Positions 9,410 to 44,870 of a DNA stretch of 47,259 bases are shown here, in pieces (positions within the stretch are counted from its first letter, which is position 1; every line of letters starts with the position of its first letter). Location: IMG/VR virus record IMGVR_UViG_3300030392_000429, positions 1 to 47,259 of that record, one strand, 5' to 3'. The translations under genes were made by a program, and so were the position numbers. The stretch comes from a virus. A model generated the notes under the pieces. It ran no database searches and was not told the origin of the DNA. It saw only the letters and a list, made by a program, of their open reading frames with translations.

Positions 9410-11910
9410 TATCGCCCCTGTCGCTGTAGACCGAACGTTGATTGTAACGCTTTTGCACTCCGTCCGTTGCCTGTCACATCCGCTATAAACACGTCGATAA
9501 ACTGGCGGCCATCGGTCTGACGCTCTACCACTTCGGTGCCTTGCGGCGCGTTATGCACATTAACATAAACCGACGTTTGTGGCGCATTGCTTGCGGCTTG
9601 CCCGCCCATGGCGCGCTGCGAACGGCTGGGGTTGTAGTCGTTAGCGCTACGCCCAATAATGCGCGCCGTGTCAGCGGTGCTTGTGATATTGGCCGGGCCG
9701 TTGACAATCTCCGGCCCGTTCTCGCCTGCGATTCCCCATTGGCCGCTGGGGATTCGCCCGCCTTTGTCGAATAGGCCAGCGAATGCACTCGCAATCCCTG
9801 AGCCGCCGCCGCCGAAAAATCCCAATGAGGCGGTCACTGCCTTGTACGCTAGCCATTGCGCTATCATTTCACCTATTCCCGCGACCACTGAGCGTGTTAA
9901 GCCTTGCATCAATGACTGAAAACCGTCTTTGAATGAGGTCTGTTGCGTCAAAACGTCAGCAAACATGTTGCCGAAGCTGCTGGTGAAATTCTCCGCAAGA
10001 TTGGCGTTTAGCGCATCGAAGTCGCTAAACGCAGACTCAGCGCTCGACAACCATTTCTCGAACGGGTCTTGCTGCTCGCCTTGATCCTGCTGTTCACCAC
10101 GCGGCTCAAAGATACTCGGATAAGCCGCCATTGCGTCATCAAAGCCACCCAGCGATTGAACGGTGTTGCGATAGGCTTCGGCTAGTCGGTTTTGCGCGTC
10201 TGCTTTGTCGTTGATTAACCCGGCCTCTACCGCCTCATCAATCATGGCCGATTGTTCGTTGTATTCGCGTTGCGCTGCGTTTAACGGGTAAAGCTGGTCG
10301 GCTAGCGCCTGTAGTGCTCGCTGACGCTGGTCTGCCGCTTCGGCTGCCCGCTTAGTGGCTTCGGTGTTTTCTTCGGTCGATTCGGTGTTTTCGTCGGTTG
10401 ATTCGGTTGACTCATCCTGCGCTTGATTGCGCGCTGTCCAGCGGCGTATTGTTTCGCGGTTGGCGGTGTTACGGCGCTGTTCGATTTCGAGTAGCTTATT
10501 CTCGGCGTCAGACAGCGCCTGCATGCCCGCTATTTCAGCGCCAACGCTACCGCCCTCAAAACCTAGCACACCGCTGCCACGGTTTTCGCTGCGCAGGTTG
10601 GCTAACTCTTCACGCGCTGCGGCGGCTTTCAGTGTCGCTTGGTCTAGCTCTGCGTTTAGCTCATCTAGGCTGCCTGATAAGTCATCATCCGACATGCCAC
10701 GCAGCTCAGTGCGCAGGTCGGCTATTTGATCTTCGGTTAGTCCGGCTTTTTCGGTAGTCAGCCCCAACTCATCACGAAACGCATAGAGTAAACCGCCCGC
10801 ACCAATGAGCAATCCTAGCCCAGTGGCGCTAGTTAGCGCACGAACAGCAACCGTAATAAGCCCAATCCCGCGCGCTGCACTGGCAGCCGCTGTGGCGGTC
10901 TTGAGCATGGCACCCGCGCCGATAAGTAGCTGCGCAGCCAAGCGTCCACCGTAAAGCGCCGCAACCGCCTTACCGATAGCAACAATGGCATCCATATTTT
11001 CAGACAGCGTGACAATGCTACTACCCAGCGTTCGTACGGCTTCCTTCACTTCCTCGCTTGAGCCAACCCACTCGATTAGATTGGTTCGGGCCACTTCTAG
11101 CTGTTGGCCGAACGTTGCAATACTGGTGGCAAACCGCCCGCTTATTTCATCGCTTGCGCCTTGGAGTGCGTTGACCACGATTTCAGCAGTGATGCCGCCA
11201 GTGGCCGCAAATTCGCGTAGCTCGCCAATGGTTAAATCTAGCGATGCAGCGATGGCGCGCATAATATCGGGCGCTTGCTCGGCCACGCTGTTGAATTCGT
11301 CGCCACGCAGCGCGCCGGATGCCAAGCCTTGGCTAAGCTGTGTAATAGCGGCGCTGGCTTCCTCTGCGGTCGCCCCGGATGTTGCAAACGATTGGTTGAT
11401 GGTTGTAGTGAGCTGTAGCAAATCCTCTTGCGACAGCCCAAGCTCAGTCGTTGATCGGGCAAGTCGGGCGTACAAGTTCGCTGTTGACTCAAAATTAGAG
11501 CGCGTATCGCGGGCCACATTGACAAGCGCTTTTTGCACCGCTGTTAATTGCTCGATGCTGTCAGTCACTTGCCTTAGCTGGTTTTCAGCGTTCTGCCATG
11601 CGTCTGCGTAGCGGATAACTTCTCGCACAGACAGCGCGCCAATTAACCCCTGAATAGCGTTTCGCGCAATGCCCGCCGTTTGCCCAAGCTGGTTATTTTG
11701 ACGACTTAAGCGCTCAGTCTCTTGCCGTACAGCGCGGGTGACGGGGTTAAGGTTGCGGTATGCGCGCTCTTGGCGCTGCGTGGCCTTCGTCGAATCGTCA
11801 AAGCTGCGCTCCATGCGGTCGGTTGAACGGTCAACATCACGCTCCGCCCGCAACAAGCCAGACGTGTCAGCGTCTACGCTGTAGTAAATCCCGCCAACGT
11901 TCTCAGCCAT
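9409..11910 (-). CDS. Tape measure protein
   Basis: 833 aa from ATG 11910 (SD AAGGAG 8 nt upstream; the track GTG start is at 11919). Contains the tape-measure N-terminal motif ITQLSQGLASGALRGDEFNSVAEQAPDIMRAIA, coiled-coil Ala/Gln-rich stretches and hydrophobic Gly-rich blocks. Confidence 0.9.
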   Translation of the reverse strand: MAENVGGIYYSVDADTSGLLRAERDVDRSTDRMERSFDDSTKATQRQERAYRNLNPVTRAVRQETERLSRQNNQLGQTAGIARNAIQGLIGALSVREVIRYADAWQNAENQLRQVTDSIEQLTAVQKALVNVARDTRSNFESTANLYARLARSTTELGLSQEDLLQLTTTINQSFATSGATAEEASAAITQLSQGLASGALRGDEFNSVAEQAPDIMRAIAASLDLTIGELREFAATGGITAEIVVNALQGASDEISGRFATSIATFGQQLEVARTNLIEWVGSSEEVKEAVRTLGSSIVTLSENMDAIVAIGKAVAALYGGRLAAQLLIGAGAMLKTATAAASAARGIGLITVAVRALTSATGLGLLIGAGGLLYAFRDELGLTTEKAGLTEDQIADLRTELRGMSDDDLSGSLDELNAELDQATLKAAAAREELANLRSENRGSGVLGFEGGSVGAEIAGMQALSDAENKLLEIEQRRNTANRETIRRWTARNQAQDESTESTDENTESTEENTEATKRAAEAADQRQRALQALADQLYPLNAAQREYNEQSAMIDEAVEAGLINDKADAQNRLAEAYRNTVQSLGGFDDAMAAYPSIFEPRGEQQDQGEQQDPFEKWLSSAESAFSDFDALNANLAENFTSSFGNMFADVLTQQTSFKDGFQSLMQGLTRSVVAGIGEMIAQWLAYKAVTASLGFFGGGGSGIASAFAGLFDKGGRIPSGQWGIAGENGPEIVNGPANITSTADTARIIGRSANDYNPSRSQRAMGGQAASNAPQTSVYVNVHNAPQGTEVVERQTDGRQFIDVFIADVTGNGRSAKALQSTFGLQRQGR

Positions 11911-19879: not shown

Positions 19880-20890
19880 TTACGCACCGGAGCCATAGAA
19901 AACTGCGGAGCGCCCGTTGGCGTCTGCAATAATTTCAAAACCCATCGCCCCGGCGATAAGCATATTGTAGTCCGCCATGGGGTAGTCGCGCGGCATCATC
20001 TGCGTACCAACCGGCATGCCCACAACTGGGCGAATGTAGCGACGGTTAGGCACAAACGCTGTCCACTCATTGCCAGAGAGCGCATAATCAACCTTGATTT
20101 CATTGATTCGGCGGTTAGTGGCAAGCCGCTGGAAGCGTGTACCCGACAGGTACTCATCCTGGTTGTAAGGCAGGTCTAGGTTGCGCGCAATTTCGGGCGA
20201 AACATAGAGGTTCATCGGCTCGGTAACGAGGTTATCGTCAGCCGCGCCGCCCAGCGTGGTCGCCAGGAAGCTTTCCCATTCTGCGGTAGTTGCGGTGGTT
20301 AGGTCGATGCCCGTCATATCGACAGATTGAGTATACGGCGAGTTACGAATGCCGTAGCCCTGGTAGCCATCAAACTGGATAGTAGGATCACCGTCCAGTA
20401 AGTAGTTAGCCATATCAGTGCGCATATCGTACGTGGCCTTTTCTACATCTTCGGCCCATGCGTCGAAGTCGTCGTTTTGCAGGACGTTCCACTCGCGGAA
20501 GCTGCGACCTACGCCGTTAGTGAAGATAGGAACCGGCACGCCACGGAAGTCGTAGTTGCCTTTGTCCATTGGCTGCGGCTTCTGACCACTGATAGAGCGT
20601 TGGGTAGTGTTCGCGCCGTCAGAATTGAAGCGGTAGCCGTGAACGATCTTACCAATATTCACTGTGGTAGCCAGCGGCATCAAGTCGCCCATAATGACTT
20701 GTCCGGCGTTATCGCGCATTACGCGAGCAGTCACGCTGTCTAGTTGTAACCATGGCTGCGGCTTGGTAATGGCGTTACCCACAAGCTCTTGCTCACGCTG
20801 TGCAAAGTAGCGGCGGTTGAGCGAAAGCTCCTGCCACTTTTGCGCGTGCAGCTTGCTGTTGGTGATTAACTGCTTATCAAAATGTAGCAT
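19880..20890 (-). CDS. Major capsid protein
   Basis: 336 aa. Position after the scaffold/protease-like and small decoration-like genes. Strong terminator downstream. Family not assignable by eye. Confidence 0.7.
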   Translation of the reverse strand: MLHFDKQLITNSKLHAQKWQELSLNRRYFAQREQELVGNAITKPQPWLQLDSVTARVMRDNAGQVIMGDLMPLATTVNIGKIVHGYRFNSDGANTTQRSISGQKPQPMDKGNYDFRGVPVPIFTNGVGRSFREWNVLQNDDFDAWAEDVEKATYDMRTDMANYLLDGDPTIQFDGYQGYGIRNSPYTQSVDMTGIDLTTATTAEWESFLATTLGGAADDNLVTEPMNLYVSPEIARNLDLPYNQDEYLSGTRFQRLATNRRINEIKVDYALSGNEWTAFVPNRRYIRPVVGMPVGTQMMPRDYPMADYNMLIAGAMGFEIIADANGRSAVFYGSGA

Positions 20891-21333
20891 TACGCAATCG
20901 CTCCTGTAGCTTTGCGAACACGCAGCAAGTCTGCCTCTGCGAGTGTCACGGATTCTTCTGAATAGAACAGCACTTCTTGTCCAGTGGTGGCTGCGGCTAG
21001 CGTACCATCGCCTGCGGATGCTAGTTCTGTGAAGCCCTGCACGTAAGTACCAGCGGCTACGCGAACATTGAAGAACTGTTCATCAAGCGGGCGGGCTGCA
21101 ACTACTGTATCGCCAGCGGGGATAACATCGTCCGCGCCTTCCAGCTTCATGTAGTTCTCTTGGGCCACCAAGTAAGTTCCGCGCGCACCAGCGGTGCCAT
21201 GTGGCTCAAATTCATCACTGGCGTTAACCGTAACGATAGAGCCGGGGGTGATGTCCACAGCCGAAGGGCGCTCCATTACCTGCGGCAATAGCTCGGAGAC
21301 CGGGCCTGCGTAGATTTTGCTATAACGAGCCAT
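20890..21333 (-). CDS. Putative head decoration / cement protein
   Basis: 147 aa. Lies between the scaffold-like and capsid genes (the lambda D position). TAATG overlaps at both ends. Confidence 0.4.
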   Translation of the reverse strand: MARYSKIYAGPVSELLPQVMERPSAVDITPGSIVTVNASDEFEPHGTAGARGTYLVAQENYMKLEGADDVIPAGDTVVAARPLDEQFFNVRVAAGTYVQGFTELASAGDGTLAAATTGQEVLFYSEESVTLAEADLLRVRKATGAIA

Positions 21334-22613
21334 TAGATTGCCTCCGGTGCTTCAAATTCAAGTTTATCGGCATTCGTGCTCAACCGCCCACCATTCAGCG
21401 CATGATCCGCCGCTTTAGGCGTTTTGCAGTTGCGGGCCATGATGCGCAGGGCGTTAACGTCGAGCGCTTTGGCTTCGTCTTCGGTCGCCAGCTTGGCCTC
21501 TACCACAGTCGCCTCAAGCGTTTCTTTCTCAGCTTTTGCAGCGGCTTCGGACTCGGCGTTAATCGCGTCGAGTTTTTCTTGCAGGGGTTTTACTGCGTCG
21601 GCAATGGCTTGCGCCTGATTCGCTTGCAGTGTTTCGGCCTGCTTGTCGAGCATGGCCTGTAGCTCTTCAGTCGTCATTTGCGGTTCCTCAGTAGACGTTT
21701 GAGAGTTGGTTTGCAGGCCAGCGGCCTCGTGTGGTTTGCCCGACGTATTGCCGAACATTTTAGAAAGCGTGTTTCGAATGGTGTTGGTGACGGCTTCCCA
21801 GGAAGTCTGGCGTTGAACTTCTTGGCGTGTATCGGAAAGCGTGATAACGCCATCAATAACGCCATAGCCGATTTTGTACGCCTTGTTGGTATCCATTTCG
21901 AAAAAGATTATCGAGTCAGCATTAAAATCGTCTACGTAGCCTTCGCCGTACTTATCTCTAGCAACGCGCTGAAGCTCTTGGCGCATATTATCAACGCTGC
22001 CGGGCAGCTCTTCGTTTAGTACCAGCTCGCTATTAACGACTTCGACTTGCTCGCCTGCGGAGTTGACCATCATGCCAACACCGTCAGCGGTGCCAATAGC
22101 GGGCGTCTCAGAAATCAAAATCGCATCGTGGTCAAATGCAAAGCTATTGCCTACCCACTCATACTCAGCGCCTTCGGGGGCTGGTTCGCGCTGCATCAGC
22201 AGGCCAGTACTGGTGCTGATTGGCTTGCCTTCGTTGATCGCCGCCAGCAGCTTGCGCCCGTTCTCGCTGTTCTGGGCAAACTCCACGTCGATAACCTTAT
22301 CGGCAAAAACGCGGTCGCCTTCGATGCGCGGGTTGGTGTTCCATGCGCCCGCCCAGAAGCCGTTAATGGCCTCTGGCGTGCGCGCGCTAACAAACTGGTT
22401 ATTCACCACCGGATGCCCCAGCGGGGCAGGCAAGCCTTCCAACTGCTGGTAGCTCGCCTCTAGCTCAGCGCGTGGGTAAAAGATGTTGTTTAACACCGTG
22501 TCGAACTTCGCCACAGCGCTAGGCACCACAATCACGTCACGACCGTTGCGCTGTTCGCGCTTGATCGCGGCGTTGTTGACACGGTGCTTGATGTTGACGC
22601 GGATTTGGCTCAT
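21333..22613 (-). CDS. Prohead scaffolding / protease-like protein (DUF2213-like N-terminus, coiled-coil C-terminus)
   Basis: 426 aa. N-terminal LGHPVVNNQFVSARTPEAINGFWAGAW region, and a C-terminal Ala/Glu/Lys/Gln coiled coil typical of scaffolds. Confidence 0.55.
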   Translation of the reverse strand: MSQIRVNIKHRVNNAAIKREQRNGRDVIVVPSAVAKFDTVLNNIFYPRAELEASYQQLEGLPAPLGHPVVNNQFVSARTPEAINGFWAGAWNTNPRIEGDRVFADKVIDVEFAQNSENGRKLLAAINEGKPISTSTGLLMQREPAPEGAEYEWVGNSFAFDHDAILISETPAIGTADGVGMMVNSAGEQVEVVNSELVLNEELPGSVDNMRQELQRVARDKYGEGYVDDFNADSIIFFEMDTNKAYKIGYGVIDGVITLSDTRQEVQRQTSWEAVTNTIRNTLSKMFGNTSGKPHEAAGLQTNSQTSTEEPQMTTEELQAMLDKQAETLQANQAQAIADAVKPLQEKLDAINAESEAAAKAEKETLEATVVEAKLATEDEAKALDVNALRIMARNCKTPKAADHALNGGRLSTNADKLEFEAPEAI

Positions 22614-22641: not shown

Positions 22642-22650
22642 AGTATAGCA
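22642..22650 (-). promoter_or_regulatory. Extended -10-like element TGCTATACT upstream of head genes
   Basis: Reverse complement of agtatagca, 29 nt upstream of ATG 22613. Confidence 0.45.
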
Positions 22651-22723
22651 CAAGGCTATCGTGGCGTGCAAAGTGGTGCAACCATGTCGTGCATGTCCAC
22701 GGTTTGGTGGCTCATCAAGGTGG

Positions 22724-23046
22724 CGTTACGACGAAAAACAGCGCGCCGTTACAGCCGTTACAAACGTTACAGCCCTAATTAAACTTGTACCGCATAAAAA
22801 TTCAATGGATTCAAGTGCTTGTGACATATATAACAATAATTACAGAAAATAGATATATATATAGAGGTCTGGCTCTCTAAGTGACTGTCAGTGTTTATGT
22901 ATATGTGACTATCGTTCGAAAAACAGCGTAACAAACGTAACGGTTGTAATTTTTTAATAAAAACAATCAGTTAAGATAAAAAATAGCGGTACGCAGGCGT
23001 TACGCCATTTTAAAACGTAACGATTGGCCGTTGACGTAAGCGTAAG
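22724..23046. repeat. CGTTAC/GTAACG hexamer arrays flanking an AT-rich (TA)n core
   Basis: CGTTAC at 22724, 22747, 22756 and 22765 (9-bp phasing). GTAAC at 22927 and 22936 (9-bp phasing). Further copies at 22997 and 23015, plus CGTAAGCGTAAGC at 23034. CGAAAAACAGCG is repeated at 22728 and 22914. Confidence 0.8.
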
Positions 23047-23065
23047 CTGTGCGTATTTCCGCACA

Positions 23066-23089
23066 CAAAAAACCCGCCGGGGTGGCGGG
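23066..23089 (-). terminator. Intrinsic terminator (minus strand)
   Basis: Minus strand: acccgcc-acccc-ggcgggt-tttttgtgtg, downstream of gene 23113..23337. Confidence 0.7.
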
Positions 23090-23112
23090 TTGGGGGCGCG
23101 AATGGTGTGCCG

Positions 23113-24649: not shown

Positions 24650-24985
24650 TTAAAACTCCGCGCTCAAATAATCCCACTCGCCTATCTCGATGTCGTCAAC
24701 CTCTGATTCGAGTTGGCAGTCTGAGTTGCAATAGATTTTGCCAGACTGGATGTAGCCATCTGACGCAGCCATGCCATAGCTTTCAAAACTGTAGCGACAG
24801 CCCGCGCAATGAACTCCGTGAGTGCTGCCTACTTTAGAATGCTTAATCTGATTAACTCCCGTTGCGTTGTCTGTATAGAGACAATAAACCCCAGCGGCTG
24901 CCAGGGCTAATGGTATTTTTCTATCGTGTAGCGGCGGGTGATATGGGTTAGCTATCAGGATCAAACGCCGCTCTCTGCTTTTCAA
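24650..24985 (-). CDS. Cys-rich (CxxC...CxxxC) small protein, start codon uncertain
   Basis: HCAGCRYSF...IYCNSDCQ zinc-ribbon-like. Upstream element C and a GGGAG SD lie inside the long ORF, and there is no ATG/GTG/TTG after that SD. Confidence 0.45.
   Translation of the reverse strand: MKSRERRLILIANPYHPPLHDRKIPLALAAAGVYCLYTDNATGVNQIKHSKVGSTHGVHCAGCRYSFESYGMAASDGYIQSGKIYCNSDCQLESEVDDIEIGEWDYLSAEF
24881..24923 (-). promoter_or_regulatory. Repeated upstream element, copy C
   Basis: Minus strand: cgaTAGAAAAATACCATTAGC (21 nt identical to copy A)-19 nt-TATTGTCTC. Confidence 0.5.
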
Positions 24986-25853
24986 GCCGGGCTTTTAGCG
25001 GGCCGAGTATTGGTTCTCCTGATTCGTCAAGCAATACAGGTTGTTGCGAACATTTGCACCGAATAGAATTGGCGTCTACCGAATACCACTCTGCAACCTC
25101 CTGAGGAGAGTATGTTCTCCCATGCCTAGCGGAATGCGACCTTCTGGTAGTTGGTGACAGGGCTGATAAATGGAGCATGGCGGTACGAATACCCAGCCGC
25201 TCCCGAGCATCCTGCGTTTCGTCTCTTGTGGCGCGCCTTAACGCGCTACCTATCTCAGTCCGCGCAATAGTCTCCGCCCGCCGCTCAGCAATCCCGAACC
25301 GCTTGCGAATATCCTTCGCCACATCACGGGGATTTAGCCCATCCTCAACGCCCTGGCTAAGCACGCGCCCCAATTCCGTAGCCGTATCGCCGTTGAATGA
25401 GTCCATCTGCTCGAACACCCGCGAACGAATCAACGCCACCCGCCGCTGCCACGGCTCCGACGCCAAGACCTGCGTTATCTCCCGCGTATAGTCATCCGTC
25501 AGCGCGGCAAGCTGTGCTACGGCGTTACCCGTACCCGCTTCATAAGCTCGACGGGCCTGCTCTGCCATATAATCCGGTGGCACTTCGATGCCCAGGCGAC
25601 GGCGAATCTCCTCAACAATAAGCCGCAGCTCCTCCACGCTAATTAGGTATTCGTAGCGCGTTTCGTTGACCACGTAGCCCGGCACCTGGGCGTTAATCGT
25701 GATCTCACGCTTTGGTATCTCCTCAAAACGATCAAGCACCCAGCGGCGAACGTCACGCAAGCCGCGTTTTAGGCGGCTGATGGTCTGTTGTTGGAGTCTT
25801 GCGCCACCCACCGGGTTCTCTGTGTTTCGGGGCAGGGTGGGGTATTTAGGCAT
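24948..25853 (-). CDS. Head morphogenesis protein, Mu F / SPP1 gp7-like
   Basis: 301 aa. ARTEIGSALRRA...TTRRSHSARHGRTYS...NSIRCKCSQ matches the Mu F-like pattern (R.sH..l.G ... nCRC). Confidence 0.75.
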   Translation of the reverse strand: MPKYPTLPRNTENPVGGARLQQQTISRLKRGLRDVRRWVLDRFEEIPKREITINAQVPGYVVNETRYEYLISVEELRLIVEEIRRRLGIEVPPDYMAEQARRAYEAGTGNAVAQLAALTDDYTREITQVLASEPWQRRVALIRSRVFEQMDSFNGDTATELGRVLSQGVEDGLNPRDVAKDIRKRFGIAERRAETIARTEIGSALRRATRDETQDARERLGIRTAMLHLSALSPTTRRSHSARHGRTYSPQEVAEWYSVDANSIRCKCSQQPVLLDESGEPILGPLKARLEKQRAAFDPDS

Positions 25854-26202: not shown

Positions 26203-26312
26203 AACACCCCCTTAGGCCGCATATCTAGCCACTTCATCTGCAAATACCACTGAAACGCGGCTATCTCTTGGTATTTTGCGTTTTCGTGCCAGTGTTGATA
26301 AACCTCATTCAT
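26199..26312 (-). CDS. Micro-ORF (37 aa)
   Basis: MNEVYQHWHENAKYQEIAAFQWYLQMKWLDMRPKGVL. Its ATG overlaps the portal stop (ATGAATGA). Confidence 0.35.
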   Translation of the reverse strand: MNEVYQHWHENAKYQEIAAFQWYLQMKWLDMRPKGVL

Positions 26313-27687
26313 CGTCGTCGCCCTCACTATCATCATCCGCAGGCACCTCAGGCTCTGCCAACGCCTCCCAGCCAATGATAGCCCGCAATTCATCTCCTGT
26401 CGCGATAATCTCCCCGGTGCCTGCCATGTTTTTAACCGCTTCGGTCGCGGTCTTGAGCATTGCCAGTTTATCGGCAAGCGAGGCGTCGTTCAGCTCCGAC
26501 CACATCACCTCGTATTCATTACCCGGCACTGGCGGAATGATGCGGTATTCCATCAGGCGGTCAATCAGGCGACGAATATCCGTTTGCAGGTCACCTGCCC
26601 GGCGCGCTTGGCAGCGGTTGTTCATATTAACCGCGTCTTCTGTGCTAGCCCTGTCCCCCTGCTGGTTCCCGATCAGCTCTTTATGAGGAATCTCTAGCGA
26701 CGCCGCGATGCACTGCACCTGCATCTCAAAATGCTCTTTCGGCTGCGGGACGTTGGCGACCAACGGGTTAATCTTGCCGCCTGTAGTGAACGCTGCTGCG
26801 TCAATGCCGCTGTTCAGATCCGCCATCATCTCATTCAGGCGCTCGTTCAGCTCGTCCATACCGACGCCATACGACCTGGCAAGCTCTGGCAGGCTTTGCG
26901 AGTCGCTATACTCAACGCTCAACTGCCGTGAAGCATTCTTCAAAAATCCTTCGCCGCTGCCTCCCGTAATCTTAACCAATGACACGAAGTCGTTATACGC
27001 CGCTTCCAGCTCGCTCACGCCTTCTCGATAATCACCTACAATAACCACGCGGCTATGATGAATCGTCACGCTACGCGCCGGGGGCGGGTTGTCTGCGGTC
27101 TGCACGTTGCCTTCGTTGTAGTTCCAGGTGGTGGGCTGGCCGTAGCGCGGGCTGTTTGGGTTTTCGTCCCATGTACCCGGCGTTAACTGGCCTTCCCATG
27201 CCGGGATAACCTCGATTAAATCCCCTCCCGGCTGTAGCTCTTCATCCCATCGCGCATTATCCGCAACGCGCAAAATCAGGCCGGAATACGCCCCTACCAT
27301 CCTGCGGCGGTCGGCATCTTGGAATTTCTGCCAGACGTTTAGCCGTTTGAACAGCTTGCGAACGTCACGTTCCCAGGGCTTCTCCGTGGTCTTTTCGTCG
27401 GTCGTGTCGCCCTGGATGATCCACGGGTTGTCCTGCCATGTCTTGCGGTTGATGCGGTTAATGCCAGCTTTGGCTAGGCTGCAGCGCTGGTACAAGTTTA
27501 GGAAGTCGAAAAAACAAAGCGTATTCGGGAACCCGAACTCGTGCCATGCGCGGTCGCGCTTCGTGTCGATACCGCCGTTGTACCCGCTGCCAAACGCTAG
27601 CGCTTGACGCATCGACGCCAACCGACGCTCGCTCATGTACTGGTTTACGGCCATCGTCAGCCGCGTTTCTTTGTCGTGTTCTGCCAT
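26305..27687 (-). CDS. Portal protein (DUF1073-type)
   Basis: 460 aa. Lies upstream of the MuF-like gene and downstream of the terminase region. N-terminal region resembles DUF1073 portals. Acidic C-terminal tail. Confidence 0.75.
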   Translation of the reverse strand: MAEHDKETRLTMAVNQYMSERRLASMRQALAFGSGYNGGIDTKRDRAWHEFGFPNTLCFFDFLNLYQRCSLAKAGINRINRKTWQDNPWIIQGDTTDEKTTEKPWERDVRKLFKRLNVWQKFQDADRRRMVGAYSGLILRVADNARWDEELQPGGDLIEVIPAWEGQLTPGTWDENPNSPRYGQPTTWNYNEGNVQTADNPPPARSVTIHHSRVVIVGDYREGVSELEAAYNDFVSLVKITGGSGEGFLKNASRQLSVEYSDSQSLPELARSYGVGMDELNERLNEMMADLNSGIDAAAFTTGGKINPLVANVPQPKEHFEMQVQCIAASLEIPHKELIGNQQGDRASTEDAVNMNNRCQARRAGDLQTDIRRLIDRLMEYRIIPPVPGNEYEVMWSELNDASLADKLAMLKTATEAVKNMAGTGEIIATGDELRAIIGWEALAEPEVPADDDSEGDDDE

Positions 27688-29338: not shown

Positions 29339-30694
29339 CTAACGCCTCCGTTTGAGTAATACAGCAGGCCCGCCATTATTCATCGCAAGATGCGGACAAG
29401 CGCCCATGATGAAAGCATCGGCAAGGTTAGGCGACGCTATGCCGCGCTTGGCTAGCTCGTCTTTGGTTTCCACCATGTCTAATCCGCGTTTGCTGTAGCG
29501 CTTCCGTGGTGTGGCTAGCTCTAACTTTAGCTGATCAAGGTTTTTCACGTCACCACTGATGCTGATTAACTCGCTTGCCGGGTATTGCTCGCCCTTGGTG
29601 ACAGCATTGAACGTGTTGCGCAATCGGTCGGCCACGTCTTGCCACGCCTGGGCTTTTAGGTTCTCGAACTTATCCTTGTTCTTGATCTTGGGGGCGTATT
29701 CCATATCGGGGTTGATGATGGCCCCGCCCGCATTGAACTTGTAGTACCCCTGGTTAATTCCCGCCTCTCGCAACGTGGAGCCAACCTGCGCGCCCACGCC
29801 GATAGAGTCATACATCAGCCGCCCGCCTTGCGTATGCGCCCATGCTCGCTTGGCAGACTGTGCCAGCTCATCTTCCGGCGCTTTCCATTCGTCAATATCC
29901 ATGCACAATGCGCCATCAAACACAGCGCAAGCGTTCGTATCGCCGCCGCTGTCGGCAACGTCATAGCCAACGGTTCGCGCGCCTGATAGGTCAATTCCTA
30001 GCTTGATATGCGCATCAACCGCCGCCTCAATCCATGAGTATTTGATAACCGCCGCGTCGTCGTTCGACTTCGGCTGTCCAAGATAGATATGGTTGTAGGC
30101 CTCTGGGTCAGCTTCCTTTAGTCGTTCAGCCTTGCGCCGTGCCGTGCGCGACAAGAACGGGTTTTGGTCATAATTGATATGCCGGATGATGCAGTCATCG
30201 CCAAGTAGCTTAGGCAGCTTTGCCTGAACGAAGTCGGTCTGTAGGTCGGGATTCCACAGGATCCACACCTCGGCACCCTCTTTACGGATGGTCGGGTCAA
30301 TGATGGCCCATTGATCTTCCGTTAAGCCTTCGCCCTCCTCAATCCAGCAAATATCAACGCCTTCGGTGCCCTTGATCTCCTCGATGTTGCGAGCAATACC
30401 GTAGAACAAGAACTCGCTACCCGTCTCTTTGTGCCGGATAGATGAAACGCCAATATCAAACTCATCGCGCCATCCTGCATCGATGATCTTCTGCTTGACC
30501 ACGGTATACACCGAATCCGTGATGCGGTTCTGAAATTGACGCAAGCACAAAAAGCGCACTGAATAGTTGCGCGCCAAGAACGCAGCCATTCCGCCAGCGT
30601 CTTGTGTCTTGGATGAAAAGCGCCCGCCCTTTAGCAGTTTGTACGGCTTGCGCGTTGTCCAGAACGTTTTAAGATTCGGATTCAGTTGGAACAT
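29339..30694 (-). CDS. terL: Terminase large subunit (PBSX/Terminase_3-like)
   Basis: 451 aa. N-terminal KLLKGGRFSSKTQDAGGMAAFLA (Walker A-like) and LCLRQFQNRITDSVY are typical of PBSX-family TerL. Confidence 0.85.
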   Translation of the reverse strand: MFQLNPNLKTFWTTRKPYKLLKGGRFSSKTQDAGGMAAFLARNYSVRFLCLRQFQNRITDSVYTVVKQKIIDAGWRDEFDIGVSSIRHKETGSEFLFYGIARNIEEIKGTEGVDICWIEEGEGLTEDQWAIIDPTIRKEGAEVWILWNPDLQTDFVQAKLPKLLGDDCIIRHINYDQNPFLSRTARRKAERLKEADPEAYNHIYLGQPKSNDDAAVIKYSWIEAAVDAHIKLGIDLSGARTVGYDVADSGGDTNACAVFDGALCMDIDEWKAPEDELAQSAKRAWAHTQGGRLMYDSIGVGAQVGSTLREAGINQGYYKFNAGGAIINPDMEYAPKIKNKDKFENLKAQAWQDVADRLRNTFNAVTKGEQYPASELISISGDVKNLDQLKLELATPRKRYSKRGLDMVETKDELAKRGIASPNLADAFIMGACPHLAMNNGGPAVLLKRRR

Positions 30695-31073
30695 TGGGTT
30701 CTTGGTAGAAGTCGTCTAGGCTGCGGCCACGGTCGATTGCCTCGCCTTTTGTGGTGTGGTCAATCGCGCTGCGCTCTGTGTAGCCATGGTTAGCTAGCAC
30801 CAGCTTGACAATAGTGCTGTTTAGCTTGTTTGCAATGCCGCCATTCAGCGCCAAATGCTCCTGCATTACCTCAATATTTTGTAACGTGTACGAAAATTCA
30901 GGATAAAGGCTTTCCCAGTCATAACTGGTAGACTTTGAAATACCCAAATAGCAGCAAAGGCCAGCGCGTGATGGCACAACGTGGCCTAGCTCATCTAGGC
31001 GGTAAAGATAATCATTCGCCTGAGCCTGAATCTCGTCGTTATACTTGGTTGGCCTCCCTACTGGATTGCCCAT
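30669..31073 (-). CDS. terS: Terminase small subunit (P22 gp3-like)
   Basis: 134 aa from ATG 31073. GRPTKYNDEIQAQANDYL...GLCCYLGISKSTSYDW is the HTH-type TerS N-terminus. Overlaps TerL. Confidence 0.75.
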   Translation of the reverse strand: MGNPVGRPTKYNDEIQAQANDYLYRLDELGHVVPSRAGLCCYLGISKSTSYDWESLYPEFSYTLQNIEVMQEHLALNGGIANKLNSTIVKLVLANHGYTERSAIDHTTKGEAIDRGRSLDDFYQEPNVPTESES

Positions 31074-31075
31074 AA

Positions 31076-31261
31076 TCAAAGCCCATCATTTTCGTCAGCA
31101 TTACGCGCCCAAATCGGCGTCTTGTTTAGCAGCTCCATCATGCGGGGGCATTCACTAATCGGACGACTGATAACGTCGTCAAAGAAAGCCGTCTGTTCTG
31201 CATTCAAGTGATAGGTGATATGGCCGCTCTCATCGACCGTTTGCGGAATTGGCATAGTCAT
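31076..31261 (-). CDS. Hypothetical protein (61 aa)
   Basis: SD AGAGGAG. Immediately upstream of TerS. Confidence 0.55.
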   Translation of the reverse strand: MTMPIPQTVDESGHITYHLNAEQTAFFDDVISRPISECPRMMELLNKTPIWARNADENDGL

Positions 31262-31284
31262 CTCCTCTGGTTTCTATTGCGTCC

Positions 31285-31328
31285 ATACTAGCACAAAAAA
31301 CCCCTCAGTACGCAGTACGCAAGAGGGG
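31285..31328 (-). promoter_or_regulatory. Terminator-promoter cassette (hairpin, T6, g, TGCTAGTAT)
   Basis: Minus strand: cccctc-16 nt loop-gagggg-tttttt-g-TGCTAGTAT. Separates the early block from the packaging genes. Confidence 0.55.
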
Positions 31329-31342
31329 CCGTGTTGGGGTGA

Positions 31343-31699
31343 TTATATCATGCCTAGCGCGAAACGAAACTCAGTGAATTCTTTTTGGCTGCCTTCACAA
31401 ATAGCAACCTTTCCATCATTGAGCTTTATCACAAATGACGCTCTCTTTTTGTTGCCGCCGCATAGCAGTCCGGCCAATGCGCCCAACGGGCCAAGCGCTA
31501 CCAGTCCTGCCGTTCCCCAGCCTAACGTACCTAGCACAGACTTGGCATTGTCCTGCGAAAGCTCTTGGAACTCCTGGATGTCGTCAAAGCTATATTTGCT
31601 TGTGGCAAACGCGCCCGTGTTTAGGGCCACAATGCGACTGCTCTTGTTAAAGACACAGTAGCCTTTTTTGTAAAAATCGCCTTCTAGTATTTTAATCAT
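31343..31699 (-). CDS. Hypothetical membrane protein with central glycine-zipper segment (118 aa)
   Basis: GTLGWGTAGLVALGPLGALAGLLCGG is flanked by soluble halves. Last gene of block D. Confidence 0.55.
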   Translation of the reverse strand: MIKILEGDFYKKGYCVFNKSSRIVALNTGAFATSKYSFDDIQEFQELSQDNAKSVLGTLGWGTAGLVALGPLGALAGLLCGGNKKRASFVIKLNDGKVAICEGSQKEFTEFRFALGMI

Positions 31700-32976: not shown

Positions 32977-33004
32977 ATGTTTACCTCCTCCGTTGTGATA
33001 CCAA

Positions 33005-33048
33005 AAGTATGCGCCCGCCGTGGCGTGGTGGCTAATGAGTAATTTCTA
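33005..33048 (-). promoter_or_regulatory. Repeated upstream element, copy D
   Basis: Minus strand: TAGAAATTACTCATTAGC-20 nt GC-rich-ATACTTTTGG. Confidence 0.45.
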
Positions 33049-33086
33049 TGGGTAATCCTAAAATTTAAGGTTTTGGCTATTTGGAT

Positions 33087-33390
33087 AAATAGCGGCTAAA
33101 TAGCGGGCTGCTTAGCAATTAAAACATCCGTTTAAAACAAGCGTATGATAGGCCTATAAGATACTGTTTTATATATATTTTTATATATTTCTTTCACTTC
33201 TTATAGACATAAAAAAACCGCACAATAGCAGGATAGCAGCTTAGTAGGGGCTGCTTTGCTATTTGCGGTAATTTTGATTTTGAAAGGGGGTGGCTGCTTA
33301 GTTGCTATCCTGCTATCCAGTTGATTTAAAAGGGTTATCAGCCTAGTAGCAGGTTAGCACGTTATTTTCGGTTTTTGTTTAAAAACAAGC
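33087..33390. repeat. Iteron/inverted-repeat cluster with AT-rich core (candidate replication origin)
   Basis: AAATAGCGG x2 (33087, 33098). ATAGCAGGATAGCAGCTTAGTAG (33225-33247) is inverted at 33294-33316 (20/23 identical). TAGCAGGTTAGCA at 33345. GTTTAAAACAAGC repeated at 33130 and 33377. AT-rich tract at 33155-33218. Confidence 0.75.
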
Positions 33391-33409
33391 ATTTAACGCC
33401 ATTCATCAA

Positions 33410-35701
33410 CTATACACCCACGCGGTAGAATTTGGCAACTACCCGGCCATTACCTGCGTGCTTGTACTCGCGTTTTTCAATGCGACCAGTGGCGACAAGA
33501 TGATCAACCGCTTGCTCTACGTCATCTCGCGCCCACTTGCGACAACGGTTAGCAATCACGCCGATGGTCTCGCCGTCTTTATCATCAACCAGCGAATAGA
33601 TGCGCGCCATCAATGCCTCCCCCTGGCTGCTGGCGTCCGTGCGCTTTTCTAACTGGTTGGAATGCGCCAGCATGATTTTCTCGTCAATGTCCTGGCGAAC
33701 AAACGCATACGCCCAACGGACGTGGCTAGGCGTGCGCACGCCTTCCGGCCCTGCTAGTATCAGCGACACCTTGGAAACCTGCTCATAGGCGCGCCGGACG
33801 ATGGCTTCAAGCCCCGTTCGACCCTTGTGCTCCTCTGCGTACTCTTCCACCCAATCGGCTACTTGCTCAAGCATATCGAGCGCCTTGGCCTCAGTGGGCA
33901 CTCGCGTCGGTTCGTTGTAGTTTTCAATGCGTCCGCTTTTACTATCAAAGCCGCCGGGGCTGTACAGGTTTTGCAGCGCAGACCGAAGTCCCATGCTCAT
34001 TGGCTGCTTTTTAAAGCCACGCTTGCGCTTCGGGTTGGTTTCCCGCTCACGCACTAACACCGCCCTGCCAATAAACCCGTTGGTGGCCTGCTCCGCCGTC
34101 ACCAGCTCGTCAAATGTCACTGGCGTAGTGAAGCCAATGAGTGATAGAAAAGGCCGCTCTAGTCCTGTGTCTATCATGTCCAGGGCACGCTCTATCTCTT
34201 TGGTACGCGCTGACATACGTCCGCACGGATCGTCGCCTTCATCAATGGCCTTTTTCGCTTGTGCATATTCGCGCAATAACAGGCCGCGCACTTCTTCTTT
34301 CATATCACCCGTTAGCAGCATGAAACCGTTGGCCTTTGAATATGCAGACATCAGAAGTCCGATAATGCCATCCAGGTAGGCAGCGCCGCCGTTCTCCTGC
34401 GCCTTGGTAATCTTGCGCAGTAGGTAGCCCAATTCGTCAATGATGTAATAGGCGCTCTGCTGGCGGACTAGGTTTCGCGTTATCTCTTGCTCAGATTTGA
34501 TAGATCCATGCACCGCTGATTGAATGCCCGCCGCTTGGTGCACTGCCGAAGTCGCCTGCAACACCGCCTCCTTCCCCGTAGCCGATGCGGAAACGCAGAA
34601 CATGAACAGGTTGGCGGTCACGCCGTCTTTATCGTCAATCATGCGCAGGCCAATGATATTACCCACCGCCACCAGCGACGCGGCTACGGCTAAACGCTCA
34701 CGCGGGAAGCGCGATTGACCGTTAATCCACTCAGTGACCTTACCCACAAAGCCGGGTGGGCGAAGTAGGTCAATGCTGTCAATGGGGAAGGGGTGGCCGT
34801 CAGGCGTAGGCGCTTCATCCTCAACCACTGGGAACGTGACCGGGCGTTGATACCCGTTGGCCTCCGCTTTGGCGATAAGCGTGCCCAGCGTTATGGGGTT
34901 GGGCGACTTGCCGAAGCTATGCCACTTCTTGTCCATGCCCCACGGGTTGTACTTTTGCGACCGTTGCGCCCACTCTTGCCACAGCGTGAAGCCATCATTG
35001 TCGCCCCCGGTGGTGTGGTGGATACCCATACCTACCGAAACATAATCATCATAGTGGGCGTCATCGTTCGGCACTGACTTGAGTATCTCGCGCAATTCGT
35101 CTAGTGACACGTCCACCGATTCGCCGGACACGCGCCCCCGGTGGTGGTCTGGCCTGCGCAATAGCGCAATCAAATCCCCTGGGGCGTCGGTTAGGTCGTC
35201 TGGGTTGCCTTTTTCGGTTTCGTACTCGGCGCCGCTGGCATGTAATGAGCTAGCGCCCACGACGAACCCACTCGATTTAAAATCCAAGCCGGGGTAGTCG
35301 TGCAAGTGCTGAACCAGTGACACGCCTGGGGGCCGTTTGAACTCAATATGCCAGCCGCCTCCCCCGGTGGCGACCACATGGCCAGATAGCGCTTTAAAAT
35401 CCAAGCTCAAATTAGCGCACAGCTTGCCGTAGGACTCAAATCCCCCGTTACGTGGGTCTACGTCAATGATTAACTGGTCGTCAATGCACACGCCAAACCC
35501 AGTGGCAAACTGGCCCGTTTCGGTCATCGCGTCAATTTGCTCTTCCGACCAGTGGGGTGAATGTTGCCAGTTCGATATGCGAGGGTGCTTCCCTTTTGCG
35601 GTACATTCTGGATCTTCGCAGCCACATGCGCCATCCGGCTTTATTTCATGTAGCGGAAAGACGCGGCGTCCTGCGTCGATGTAGTCGTGGATGTTAGCCA
35701 T
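33410..35701 (-). CDS. Primase-helicase (Prim-Pol N-terminus, PriCT-like middle, P-loop C-terminal domain)
   Basis: 763 aa. VFPLHEIKPDG...KGKHPR, IIDVDPRNGG and GGGGWHIEF are Prim-Pol motifs. YDDYVSVGMGIHH..FTLWQEW is PriCT-like. SASATGKE is a P-loop-like motif. Confidence 0.8.
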   Translation of the reverse strand: MANIHDYIDAGRRVFPLHEIKPDGACGCEDPECTAKGKHPRISNWQHSPHWSEEQIDAMTETGQFATGFGVCIDDQLIIDVDPRNGGFESYGKLCANLSLDFKALSGHVVATGGGGWHIEFKRPPGVSLVQHLHDYPGLDFKSSGFVVGASSLHASGAEYETEKGNPDDLTDAPGDLIALLRRPDHHRGRVSGESVDVSLDELREILKSVPNDDAHYDDYVSVGMGIHHTTGGDNDGFTLWQEWAQRSQKYNPWGMDKKWHSFGKSPNPITLGTLIAKAEANGYQRPVTFPVVEDEAPTPDGHPFPIDSIDLLRPPGFVGKVTEWINGQSRFPRERLAVAASLVAVGNIIGLRMIDDKDGVTANLFMFCVSASATGKEAVLQATSAVHQAAGIQSAVHGSIKSEQEITRNLVRQQSAYYIIDELGYLLRKITKAQENGGAAYLDGIIGLLMSAYSKANGFMLLTGDMKEEVRGLLLREYAQAKKAIDEGDDPCGRMSARTKEIERALDMIDTGLERPFLSLIGFTTPVTFDELVTAEQATNGFIGRAVLVRERETNPKRKRGFKKQPMSMGLRSALQNLYSPGGFDSKSGRIENYNEPTRVPTEAKALDMLEQVADWVEEYAEEHKGRTGLEAIVRRAYEQVSKVSLILAGPEGVRTPSHVRWAYAFVRQDIDEKIMLAHSNQLEKRTDASSQGEALMARIYSLVDDKDGETIGVIANRCRKWARDDVEQAVDHLVATGRIEKREYKHAGNGRVVAKFYRVGV

Positions 35702-36233
35702 TGTTCATTTTCTCCCGCATCTGCATGTTTTCTTCCACTGTTCCGCGCAATAGCCCCATACTCTCCATTTCCAACAGATGGGCATAAATCCACTCATCTT
35801 CTGTTGAGTAAACCTTGCATTCATTAACCAAAAAATCTTGCGTAATGAACCTTACATTAGTGGGTCTGCCATCCATAAACGAAAACAACTGCAAGGCATA
35901 TAACCCTTCATCCTTACCGATAATTTGCCCTTGGTTGTGGATTTTTCCATTTTTGTAAGCGTGGACGAACAGCCCATCGAATCCGCTGTTGTTCATCGGT
36001 TTTGCTCCATTCATTTTGGGCGCATCCTTTACGCCTTTGCTTTGATTGCATGACCGGCACGCGGCCACAAGGTTGGCAATATGGTGGCTGCCACCCTTTG
36101 CAACTGGTACCACATGGTCTATTTGTAGCTCTGCGTTTTTACCTTCTGCGCCACAATAAACGCATGTGTAACGGTCGCGGCGCATAACGCGCATTTTCGC
36201 CGCGTCGCTTGGGCCTTCTAGTCGTGCTGTCAT
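35694..36233 (-). CDS. HNH endonuclease with unknown C-terminal domain
   Basis: 179 aa. CVYCGAEGKNAELQIDHVVPVAKGGSHHIANLVAACRSCNQSKG is a classic HNH motif. The 3' half is visibly AT-rich. Confidence 0.8.
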   Translation of the reverse strand: MTARLEGPSDAAKMRVMRRDRYTCVYCGAEGKNAELQIDHVVPVAKGGSHHIANLVAACRSCNQSKGVKDAPKMNGAKPMNNSGFDGLFVHAYKNGKIHNQGQIIGKDEGLYALQLFSFMDGRPTNVRFITQDFLVNECKVYSTEDEWIYAHLLEMESMGLLRGTVEENMQMREKMNNG

Positions 36234-36448
36234 TCTTTAACCTCCTGAATATCGCTTTCAAGCGCATCTGAAATAATTGGTTGCGCAATGCCGAAGCGCC
36301 AGATTTTAGCTTTTTCGTCTGGCGTCAGCGAGCCATCGCGGCGAACGTACCTAAATAGCTTCATATAGCTGACTTTAGATTGCGTGGAAAGTAGTTTAAG
36401 GCTGTATCCGGCGTCTGTGAGCAGTGCAATCATCTGTTTAGTTTTCAT
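36230..36448 (-). CDS. Small putative DNA-binding protein (72 aa), first leftward gene
   Basis: SD AAGGGG. ATGA overlap with the HNH gene. HTH-like LSTQSKVSYMKLFRYVRRDG. Confidence 0.5.
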   Translation of the reverse strand: MKTKQMIALLTDAGYSLKLLSTQSKVSYMKLFRYVRRDGSLTPDEKAKIWRFGIAQPIISDALESDIQEVKE

Positions 36449-36497
36449 TGTCTAGCCCCTTAGTTGATGCCTCTATTCTGGGGCATGAAAAAAAATG

Positions 36498-36526
36498 TTG
36501 CAAGCCGTTTTTACCGTTGCTATAGT
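36498..36526 (+). promoter_or_regulatory. Near-consensus sigma70 promoter for the rightward arm
   Basis: TTGCAA, a 17-nt spacer ending in TGC, then TATAGT (TGCTATAGT). Lies 35 nt upstream of ATG 36561. Confidence 0.6.
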
Positions 36527-36560
36527 TCGTCTTGTCAACACACAACAAGGAGCACAACAC

Positions 36561-37328
36561 ATGAGCATTTTAGACCGCATTAGCAAGCCGCAATCAAAGC
36601 CCGTCATTATGACGATTTTGGGCGAGCCGGGTGTGGGCAAAACATCGTTAGCCGCTGCGTTTCCATCCCCGGTATTCATCAAAGTGGAAGATGGCACCGA
36701 AGGCATCCCGGCTTCACTGAAAGACAACATCGCGGAACTGCCAGAAGTTAAAAGCGTTGACCAGCTATGGGCAGACCTGCATGGACTTGTTAGTGAGGAA
36801 CACCACTTCAAGACCGTGGTTATTGACAGCGTGACCGCCTTAGAGCGCCTTTTTCAGCAACACATCGTAGACAGTGACCCCAAGAAGCCCAAGAGCATCA
36901 CTACGGCGATGGGCGGTTATGGCGCTGGCTTTATGGCCGTGGGTGGACTGCACCAGCGGGTACGCCGTGCAGCGACATTGCTGCAAGACAAGGGCATCCA
37001 TGTTTTGTTTTTGGCGCACGTTGAAATTGACACGCTTGACTTGCCAGATCAAGACCCGTACAGCCGCTACTCACTACGCCTCAATAAGCGCAGCATGGCC
37101 CCGTATGTCGATGACGTGAGCGGTGTGGCACTGGTGCGCCTGGAAACCTTCACGATGGGCGATGATGAAAAGCGTAAAAAAGCCGTGGGCAATGGCAACC
37201 GAATCATTACCATGCACGCCACCCCTGCCAGTATCACCAAGAACCGCTACGGCATCACTGACAACATCGACTTTGCTATCGGCACTAATCCGCTGGCACC
37301 GTATATCGATAGTTTGAAGGAGGCGTAA
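36561..37328 (+). CDS. Sak4-like RecA-fold ATPase (AAA_24 family-like)
   Basis: Walker A ILGEPGVGKTSLAAAFP, then VFIKVEDG, then Walker B VVIDSVT. SD AAGGAG. Confidence 0.8.
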   Translation: MSILDRISKPQSKPVIMTILGEPGVGKTSLAAAFPSPVFIKVEDGTEGIPASLKDNIAELPEVKSVDQLWADLHGLVSEEHHFKTVVIDSVTALERLFQQHIVDSDPKKPKSITTAMGGYGAGFMAVGGLHQRVRRAATLLQDKGIHVLFLAHVEIDTLDLPDQDPYSRYSLRLNKRSMAPYVDDVSGVALVRLETFTMGDDEKRKKAVGNGNRIITMHATPASITKNRYGITDNIDFAIGTNPLAPYIDSLKEA

Positions 37329-37609
37329 TGCAAACCCGCAACGATATGGCATGGCGTGAAGCCGCTCAGGCATACCGAAACGCAAAACACGCGCTACAAG
37401 ACGCACAGCAGGCAGAGCAAGAAGCTAAGCTCACGCTGCTAGAACTTACAGACGTTGACGCACGCGGCTCAGGCGTGGCAGTGAAGTTTATCGAACGTAA
37501 GGGCAGCGTTGACTATAAAAAGGCGCTATCCGATGTTGCGCCTGACGTTGACGTTGAGCCGTACCGTAAAAAATCCACTAGCGTAACCAGCATTACCACC
37601 GCTGAATAA
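37328..37609 (+). CDS. Hypothetical protein (93 aa)
   Basis: ORF with a TAATG overlap onto the Sak4-like gene. Confidence 0.55.
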   Translation: MQTRNDMAWREAAQAYRNAKHALQDAQQAEQEAKLTLLELTDVDARGSGVAVKFIERKGSVDYKKALSDVAPDVDVEPYRKKSTSVTSITTAE

Positions 37610-37630
37610 ACCCGAAAAGGAATCAAGATT

Positions 37631-38197
37631 ATGTCATTTTTCAAAATGTCCGACGGCACCGCACCATCCACTAACGGCACCGCTGAAATGGGCGGTGGCA
37701 ACCTGCCACCTATCCCATCGGGTACGCAGTTAAAGGCCATGATTGTGGAGGCTAAGTGGGACGATGGCGGCCAATACAATAACCGGCACATCAAGCTGCG
37801 CTGGGATGTGGTAGACGGCGAGTACAAGAAGCGCGTCGTTTTCCAAAAGGTGCAGGTGTGCGAAACCGACGCCAACAAGCGCGACAAGGCGATCCGTATG
37901 CTGGCGGCAATTGATGCTAACTGCGGCGGCAAGATCATGCAGCTCAATGCAGAGCCAACCGATATGGATTTAATGTCCAATCTCTGCAATAAGCCGATGG
38001 TGATTAAGGTTGAGGTGTGGGAGATGGAAGGCCAGGATGGTGAAACACGCTCCGGCAACTGGGTGTCCGCTGTGTCTAGCGGCAAGCCGCAAGCGCCAGC
38101 GCAACCTGTGCCACAACAACCACAGCAACAGTCCGAACCACAAGCAGAAACGAATAATCCCGATGTGTCTAAAGCGGATAACGAACTAGGGTTTTAA
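37631..38197 (+). CDS. ssDNA-binding protein, DUF669-like
   Basis: 188 aa. Pro/Gln-rich linker and an acidic C-terminal tip ending DNELGF, reminiscent of SSB tails. Sits next to Sak4 as in known Sak4-SSB modules. Confidence 0.65.
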   Translation: MSFFKMSDGTAPSTNGTAEMGGGNLPPIPSGTQLKAMIVEAKWDDGGQYNNRHIKLRWDVVDGEYKKRVVFQKVQVCETDANKRDKAIRMLAAIDANCGGKIMQLNAEPTDMDLMSNLCNKPMVIKVEVWEMEGQDGETRSGNWVSAVSSGKPQAPAQPVPQQPQQQSEPQAETNNPDVSKADNELGF

Positions 38198-38237
38198 TAA
38201 ATTGGGCCAAGGATGGCCCATCACGGGAGCCTAAAAA

Positions 38238-38804: not shown

Positions 38805-38817
38805 GAAGGGGCTAAAT

Positions 38818-42387: not shown

Positions 42388-42400
42388 ACAAAATCAATTA

Positions 42401-42422: not shown

Positions 42423-42465
42423 AGTATTTGACAGGCAAGGCAACACGACACAATCAGGAGTGGTT

Positions 42466-44868: not shown

Positions 44869-44870
44869 CC

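Follow-up and report, generated by a model that had tools for sequence, protein, structure and literature searches.

An origin-like iteron cassette without its cognate initiator in the head-gene cluster of an environmental tailed phage

Phage P4 depends on two clusters of the octamer TGTTCACC, ori and crr, that are separated by about 4.5 kb. Its alpha primase-helicase binds short origin repeats through a C-terminal winged helix (PMC4234260, citing Ziegelin & Lanka 1995 and Yeo et al. 2002), and the SaPI/PICI iterons are recognised by a self-loading helicase, again through a C-terminal winged helix (PMC9371898; PMC6092414, Fig. 2 legend). In SaPI origins, 6-12 iterons of five or six nucleotides directly follow rep, half of them on each side of an AT-rich centre and in opposed orientation (PMC9371898). 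SPP1 carries two origins, oriL and oriR, which lie about 13 kb apart and each combine repeats with an AT-rich unwinding element (PMC6316719). Its oriR is a segment that interrupts the order of the virion-assembly genes and is bracketed by transcription signals (PMC6316719), and it has been proposed to stall replication forks through bound gp38, producing the switch to concatemeric replication (PMC6316719, PMC3485210).

The window analysed here is a stretch of viral DNA of 47,259 nucleotides whose first ~98 nt (1-98) reappear at its end (47162-47259); because of this terminal repeat we take it to be a circularly closed, complete phage genome of ~47.16 kb. Minus-strand genes, the tail genes among them, occupy positions 1-36448, and a plus-strand early module (36495-46618) encodes Sak4, an SSB, a Cas4-like nuclease, helicases (SF2), a methyltransferase and a dUTPase. 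The head region reads, in order, portal, MuF-like gene, small ORFs, terminator, a non-coding cassette that we call type A, promoter, the gene for a 426-aa protein, decoration and capsid (Table 1). As the initial annotation had proposed, the cassette lies between a terminator and the head-gene promoter, in a 500-bp gap; the promoter is sigma70-like, and both signals are on the minus strand. The cassette is 10.3 kb away from the replicase gene and 6-8 kb away from the terminase genes. GC and AT skew track gene orientation and transcription only, with nothing to be seen at 22.9 kb.

Table 1. Coordinates of the type A cassette, the resident type B module and neighbouring features in the window
Feature	Position	Strand	Details
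Major capsid protein	19880-20890	-	DUF6260/phrog_771
Decoration protein	20890-21333	-	
426-aa protein	21333-22613	-	phrog_760
Promoter of the scaffold-position/decoration/capsid operon	22642-22671	-	sigma70-type; TTGCAC (22671-22666)-N18-TGcTATACT (22647-22642); read from the sequence
Type A origin-like cassette, whole module	22682-23064	.	383 bp, non-coding; borders by blastn against relatives with another cassette
Promoter-proximal iteron array	22724-22771	-	CGTTACG at 22724-22730, then three TGTAACG (minus) at 22747, 22756 and 22765, 9 bp apart
12-mer CGAAAAACAGCG, copy 1	22732-22743	+	
AT-rich core, putative unwinding element	22772-22926	.	includes (TA)n at 22851-22866
12-mer CGAAAAACAGCG, copy 2	22917-22928	+	
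Distal inner iteron array	22927-22949	.	TGTTACG (minus, 22927-22933), CGTAACG (22936-22942) and degenerate TTGTAAT, 9 bp apart
Outer iterons	22986-23047	.	variant GCGGTACGC (22986-22994), CGTTACG (22998-23004), CGTAACG (23016-23022), tandem GTAAGC x2 (23035-23047)
Rho-independent terminator of the MuF-side transcription unit	23071-23091	-	upstream cassette border
MuF-like protein	24948-25853	-	
Portal	26305-27687	-	
Large terminase	29339-30694	-	terminase genes together 29339-31079
Resident type B origin-like module	~33075-33360	.	just 3' of the replicase gene; GGATAGCAG/CTAAGCAGC repeats
Resident replicase	33410-35701	-	763 aa; Prim-Pol + PriCT_2 + DUF3987 helicase-like (domain scan)

The borders of the cassette are sharp, with blastn homology to a relative that carries another cassette (L009) ending at 22681 and restarting at 23065. 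Between 22724 and 23047 there are 8-9 near-palindromic heptamers of the form YGTWACG (8 exact sites, with 2-3 degenerate ones besides), similar to the 6-12 short (5-7 bp) repeats of the SaPI/PICI origins, and they form two sets (22724-22771 and 22927-23047) around an AT-rich centre, as in those elements. Hexamers CGTTAC/GTAACG begin at 22724, 22747, 22756, 22765, 22937, 22998 and 23017; these seven, out of 30 in the 47-kb window, fall within 299 bp, where 0.14-0.19 would be expected (Poisson P ~1e-9), and none of 200,000 random placements matched the cluster.

Much of this anatomy had already been described in the initial annotation, which had correctly placed the first CGTTAC and the triple with 9-bp spacing, and whose 9-bp-spaced GTAAC pair on the right is found at 22928 and 22937. 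The very AT-rich centre that it reported is confirmed as well, the lowest-GC 150 bp of the genome being 22836-22985 (28% GC). Two of its details need correction, as the 12-mer CGAAAAACAGCG does occur twice, with starts at 22732 and 22917 and not at 22728 and 22914, and the GTAAGC tandem (cgtaagcgtaagc) is present with its start one base away, at 23035. The opposite orientation of the arrays holds in part: it can be read from the central and the first base only, because the YGTWACG unit is near-palindromic, and the inner arrays align equally well as direct (76%) and as inverted repeats (77%). For the same reason the SaPI-like opposition of the two sets is weakly defined here. Each copy of the 12-mer comes after an iteron array, and the two copies have the same orientation. 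A DnaA box is missing from the cassette, and a tRNA search found none. Beside the terminator, just inside the cassette, a small hairpin (GTGTGCG-gaaata-CGCACA, 23051-23066) is kept in the head-locus type A copies, with changes in L002 and L010 that preserve the pairing; it is possibly a second terminator stem.

Close DNA relatives were not found by megablast and blastn among 50,697 GenBank phage records. Searches of 185,579 bacterial and archaeal genomes with the 426-aa protein and with the 24-mer core of the cassette gave 0 matches, and nothing therefore points to a plasmid-prophage lifestyle. Relatives whose neighbouring genes are 76-95% identical do occur in IMG/VR and in metagenome contigs, mostly aquatic and including Tara Oceans, and their head locus exists in three states, with a type A cassette, with a type B cassette or with no cassette. 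The initial annotation had suggested looking for conservation of the repeats in related phages, and the type A cassette is indeed present in five distinct haplotypes that are 80-88% identical and keep all main iterons, together with both copies of the 12-mer and a 36-bp block (~22814-22849) of the AT core that is invariant among the five. Type B cassettes have the same length and layout, with repeats TATCCTGC/GCAGGATAG and CTAAGCAGC around an (AT)n core, and the terminator is common to type A and type B relatives. The one contig without a cassette, L003 (5100-5540), has other coding sequence and a different terminator abutting the head promoter, which is kept in all relatives. In the distant L252 (portal 54% and 426-aa protein 55% identical) the same slot is filled with GGTGTCAC repeats and an AT-rich centre (4650-5180). 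Type B, D and E modules also have a (TA)-rich centre.

The nature of the cassette is best understood from its homologues, which sit behind replicase genes. The cassette aligns end to end (~330 bp, ~70% identity) with a non-coding element directly 3' of the replicase gene of L117, and the rep-adjacent elements of L248 and L249 are likewise ~70% identical to it. The 9-bp triple is unchanged in the rep-adjacent copy as well as in each of the five head-locus ones, and CCGTTACGTTTGTTACG, in the distal inner array, is invariant across head-locus and rep-adjacent copies; the 12-mer is absent from the rep-adjacent paralogue. The L117 replicase belongs to what we call the RepA family. Homologues of 40% identity are encoded by L060 and L031, two high-GC and otherwise unrelated phages, which were also returned when viral contigs were scanned with the loose pattern CGTTAC-N3 x3, a pattern that mostly matched coding 27-bp tandem repeats. 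In both phages, opposed arrays with GTAACG triples spaced by 9 bp begin a few bases past the replicase stop codon; what they share with the cassette is limited to the iterons and the layout and does not extend to the sequence in between. The L060 protein contains a primase-helicase zinc ribbon (Zn_Ribbon_Prim), DUF6371 and a P-loop region; a PDB sequence search with the replicase gave 0 hits. Thus, origin-like modules homologous to the cassette, in L117, L246, L248, L249, L060 and L031, occupy the rep-adjacent position of the SaPI origins.

Repeat type and replicase family go together. We compared motif density in the 600 bp past the replicase gene with that in the rest of each locus, for 75 RepA-family and 25 PrimPol-family loci. 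Behind RepA-family genes GTAACG reaches 4.66/kb against 0.26/kb elsewhere, an 18-fold enrichment, with at least three copies in 33 loci, and GGATAG stays at 0.09/kb (0.20/kb elsewhere; at least three copies in none). Behind PrimPol-family genes the picture is reversed, with GGATAG at 1.55/kb (0.33/kb elsewhere; at least three copies in 6 loci) and GTAACG at 0.14/kb (0.26/kb elsewhere; at least three copies in none). This covariation is the pattern expected of initiator-iteron pairs. Indeed, many phages with PrimPol-helicases that are 35-98% identical have, right behind the gene, a 350-500 bp non-coding module with xGATAG-type repeats and a (TA)-rich core. A third replicase, found in L057 (Prim-Pol + PriCT_2 + AAA_25/DnaB-like, 665 aa), is followed by a type D module (10560-10830) with AAATCACC(G) repeats. 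We take the type D repeat AAATCACC to resemble the P4 octamer TGTTCACC; a difference from P4 is that the elements described here have an AT core inside each module.

Similar gaps are seen beyond the metagenome contigs. In the published isolate Pseudoalteromonas phage H103, the DNA primase gene is followed by a 500-bp gap without annotation (NC_028819.1 ~31003-31507; L258 3772-4276), in which GATAGTA-type repeats, both direct and inverted, accompany a TATATA core; on these sequence features the gap is a candidate origin in a phage that can be studied in culture. RepA-family primase-helicases are also widespread in bacterial genomes (L259-L333), among them Synechococcus, many Alphaproteobacteria and Burkholderiaceae, where the genes presumably sit in integrated elements. 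GTAACG arrays follow the gene in only 3 of 66 bacterial loci (L271, L280 and L283, all Alphaproteobacteria), and therefore iteron specificity has diversified within the RepA family.

The replicase of the window is of the other kind. This PrimPol-type protein, which has a 98% identical counterpart in a type B contig, is not related to the RepA family associated with GTAACG iterons, and the module behind it has type B repeats: GCTGCTTAGC (33107-), GCAGGATAGCAGCTTAGTAG (33228-), GCTGCTTAGTTGCTATCCTGCTATCCAG (33293-) and CTAGTAGCAGGTTAGCA (33344-), with a (TA)n/AT core at 33170-33189 (tatatatatttttatatatt). This module, the second lowest-GC spot of the genome, is homologous to the head-locus cassette of L004, L005 and L009, and it is probably the phage's own origin. 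The type A repeats at 22.9 kb and the type B repeats at 33.2 kb share no motif or words. Moreover, no RepA homologue was detected in the window, where tblastn with the L117 replicase gave a best E of 7 and a profile of the RepA C-terminal 400 aa (53 members), run against all six-frame ORFs, a best E of 0.012 (9.9 bits, over a 47-aa helical stretch). Since the genome encodes no cognate initiator, a phage protein able to bind or fire the cassette would have to be provided in trans.

A portal-centred metagenome scan gave contigs covering the two sites, in which the modules can be compared within one genome. L246, L248 and L249 pair a RepA replicase with type A modules at both the rep-adjacent and the head locus, and L244/L004, L005/L132 and L009/L131 pair a PrimPol replicase with type B at both. 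The window, by comparison, has PrimPol with type B at the replicase and type A at the head locus, and L057 has its PrimPol + AAA_25 protein with type D and, again, type A. Six entries are therefore matched and two mismatched, a tally that is small and made of non-independent entries (Fisher P ~0.1, for A/B only). The two copies inside one genome are only ~70% identical and keep the same iterons, which argues that both are selected to bind the same initiator.

The window has a mosaic make-up, with an A-lineage-like head region and a segment, 32983-37679, that shares 90% identity with the B-lineage contig L244. The mismatch in the window could stem from a chimeric metagenome assembly; L057 is a second, independent mismatch. 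Two HNH endonuclease genes (35694-36233 and 38238-38804) lie within the replication region, one of them overlapping the start of the replicase gene, and the first is 95% identical in L130 and only 36% in L131 and L132. These endonucleases, candidates for the homing type, may promote module exchange here.

Taken together, we consider it likely, from the parallel with described origins, that the cassette is an oriR-like second origin module left without its initiator by module exchange. The YGTWACG repeats that flank the AT/(TA)n core would be the binding sites of a self-loading primase-helicase initiator, which would oligomerise on the iterons and open the core. In related phages the module is found directly behind the gene of this Zn-ribbon/DUF6371/P-loop primase-helicase, the RepA family, and a second, diverged copy is present in the head-gene cluster, between the MuF-side terminator and the capsid-operon promoter. 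In the window, the replication module would have been swapped for a PrimPol-helicase with its own iteron module (33075-33360), leaving the head-cluster copy in place. That these modules are origins we infer by analogy with SaPI/PICI, P4 and SPP1, and the type A copy of the window appears to be currently unused. A replication origin was one of the options of the initial annotation, and as a kind of element it gains support from the homology to iteron/AT-core modules 3' of primase-helicase genes.

The analogies have their limits. In the cognate context the resemblance to SaPI/PICI is close, with the module directly past the primase-helicase stop codon and a specificity that tracks the initiator (PMC9371898, PMC6092414). 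The window copy differs in lying far from the replicase gene, in the head cluster, in the lack of the matching initiator family from the genome, and in its carrier, which is a 47-kb tailed phage and not a satellite. The comparison with SaPI/PICI covers the module layout; the RepA family here has the architecture Zn_Ribbon_Prim + DUF6371 + P-loop. With SPP1, these phages share two modules of repeats and AT-rich sequence 10-13 kb apart, one of them at the initiator gene, and the head-locus module resembles oriR in coming past the portal/MuF-like and small moron genes, between a terminator and a promoter. In relatives both modules are also of the same repeat type (A/A in L246, L248 and L249; B/B in L244, L005/L132 and L009/L131), as in SPP1. 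In contrast, the two modules of the window are of different repeat types, and therefore one initiator cannot serve both. SPP1 also uses the origin-binding protein gp38, a loader and a DnaB-type helicase, whereas these phages have fused primase-helicases; no DnaB-type helicase was present among the replication genes scanned (Prim-Pol/PriCT_2/DUF3987, SF2 helicases, Sak4, SSB and Cas4-like nuclease). Finally, oriL is inside gene 38, while the module here is behind the replicase gene.

Could the cassette nevertheless be at work in the window? It might be a second origin or a fork-arrest site in use, bound by the resident PrimPol-helicase, by another protein of the window or by a host protein; as a working origin it would be a true oriR equivalent, for example the trigger of a theta-to-concatemer switch of the kind proposed for SPP1. 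The slot is identical to that of oriR, for which published work offers a fork-stalling model (PMC6316719, PMC3485210). In both mismatched genomes the iterons are intact, an ori-like cassette occupies this slot even in L252, at 55% protein identity, and the type A cassette contains one invariant GATAG, which is the core of the type B repeat. Nonetheless, we regard such use as unlikely, as the type A and type B repeats have no common motif, GTAACG is not enriched past any PrimPol-family gene, the cassette has no DnaA box, and no ORF of the window tracks A-type versus B-type contigs: among the ORFs covered by the relatives' contigs, none is present in all A-type and missing from all B-type ones. 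Type B contigs, too, have the adjacent 74-aa gene, the HTH protein (44871-45200) and the methyltransferase, and the HTH protein, which had been proposed for binding tests, is 89% identical in relatives with the other cassette type. Control of transcription is less probable still. The arrays would then be operators or enhancers of the head-operon promoter, acting through looping, as the initial annotation had considered, or through replication-coupled activation, and it is true that the cassette always abuts this promoter and that the proximal array ends ~55 bp upstream of the -35 hexamer. However, the complete promoter (TTGCAC-N18-TGcTATACT) is present in the cassette-less L003, it does not vary between contigs with type A, B and E cassettes in spite of their different repeats, and the same module is found behind replicase genes, far from any head promoter, so that a role as looping operator finds little room.

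The remaining readings are highly improbable. Phased short repeats in a non-coding gap of the morphogenesis region could suggest a packaging site (pac/cos) or a centromere-like partition site, both of which had been proposed for this locus. The type A cassette is nonetheless combined with three terminase types, that of the window and L057, that of L068 (28% identity) and that of L117, which is common to B-type contigs, and the distance to the terminase genes also speaks against packaging. As for partition, no domains of a partition ATPase or adaptor were found in the flanking or early genes scanned, and the lack of a bacterial or archaeal counterpart for the 24-mer core and the 426-aa protein counts against it too. 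Nor does a small RNA or a small protein readily account for the conservation, an explanation that we hold to be just as improbable. The 36-bp invariant block and a weak plus-strand promoter-like match (GTGACA-N18-GAAAAT) could be read in its favour, and ORFs of 36-63 aa do exist, so that the earlier statement that there is no credible ORF has to be qualified; what stands of it is that the longest minus-strand ORF (51 aa) is frameshifted in two of the five relatives (L007 and L010). The cassette itself has no Rfam match (a sub-threshold GcvB match lies outside it only), folding of the single strand gave no structural signal (z-score -1.05), and in the alignment fold the covariation term is unfavourable and the helices consist only of the iteron arrays pairing with each other. 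Distant modules (L060 and L031), moreover, keep the iterons and the layout only.

If the cassette is an initiator-less second origin, as we favour, its good state of preservation calls for comment. The window and the matched L001 have seven GTAACG/CGTTAC hexamers each, and the window has 7 singleton substitutions versus 17 in L001, a count based on five haplotypes only. Both mismatched genomes, the window and L057, fully keep the iterons and show no excess of lineage-specific changes. Such an intact orphan copy could reflect a function that does not need RepA, a recent exchange, another binder, or a role in trans during co-infection. It is tempting to speculate on the last of these, although we think it doubtful: the orphan origin would be kept for conflicts between co-infecting elements, either by letting the RepA-type initiator of another phage or satellite in the same cell replicate this phage or by acting as an iteron decoy that titrates this initiator and slows the competitor. 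Such a co-infection role would explain why an intact heterologous module is found in two independent genomes with other replicases. Phage lambda provides a precedent for inhibition of phage replication by iteron-bearing DNA, as the blocking of repλ phages requires plasmid-borne oop together with iterons ITN3-4 of oriλ (PMC3349717).

Replication origins are unannotated in almost all environmental phages, and the modules described here suggest a testable rule, in which a fused primase-helicase gene has behind it a module of 350-450 bp, made of short repeats on either side of a (TA)-rich core, with a repeat type that tracks the replicase family. The group covered by this rule includes the isolate H103. 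By its likeness to known origins, the cassette of the window is a genuine origin-type iteron module, the twist being that it is a heterologous, initiator-less putative second origin. An SPP1-like putative second origin in the head-gene cluster thus seems to be common in this marine siphovirus lineage, and replicase and origin modules appear to be shuffled independently of each other, giving rise to orphan origins. These orphan origins would offer a natural system in which to study the role of a second origin, the evolution of initiator specificity and the cross-talk between co-infecting phages.
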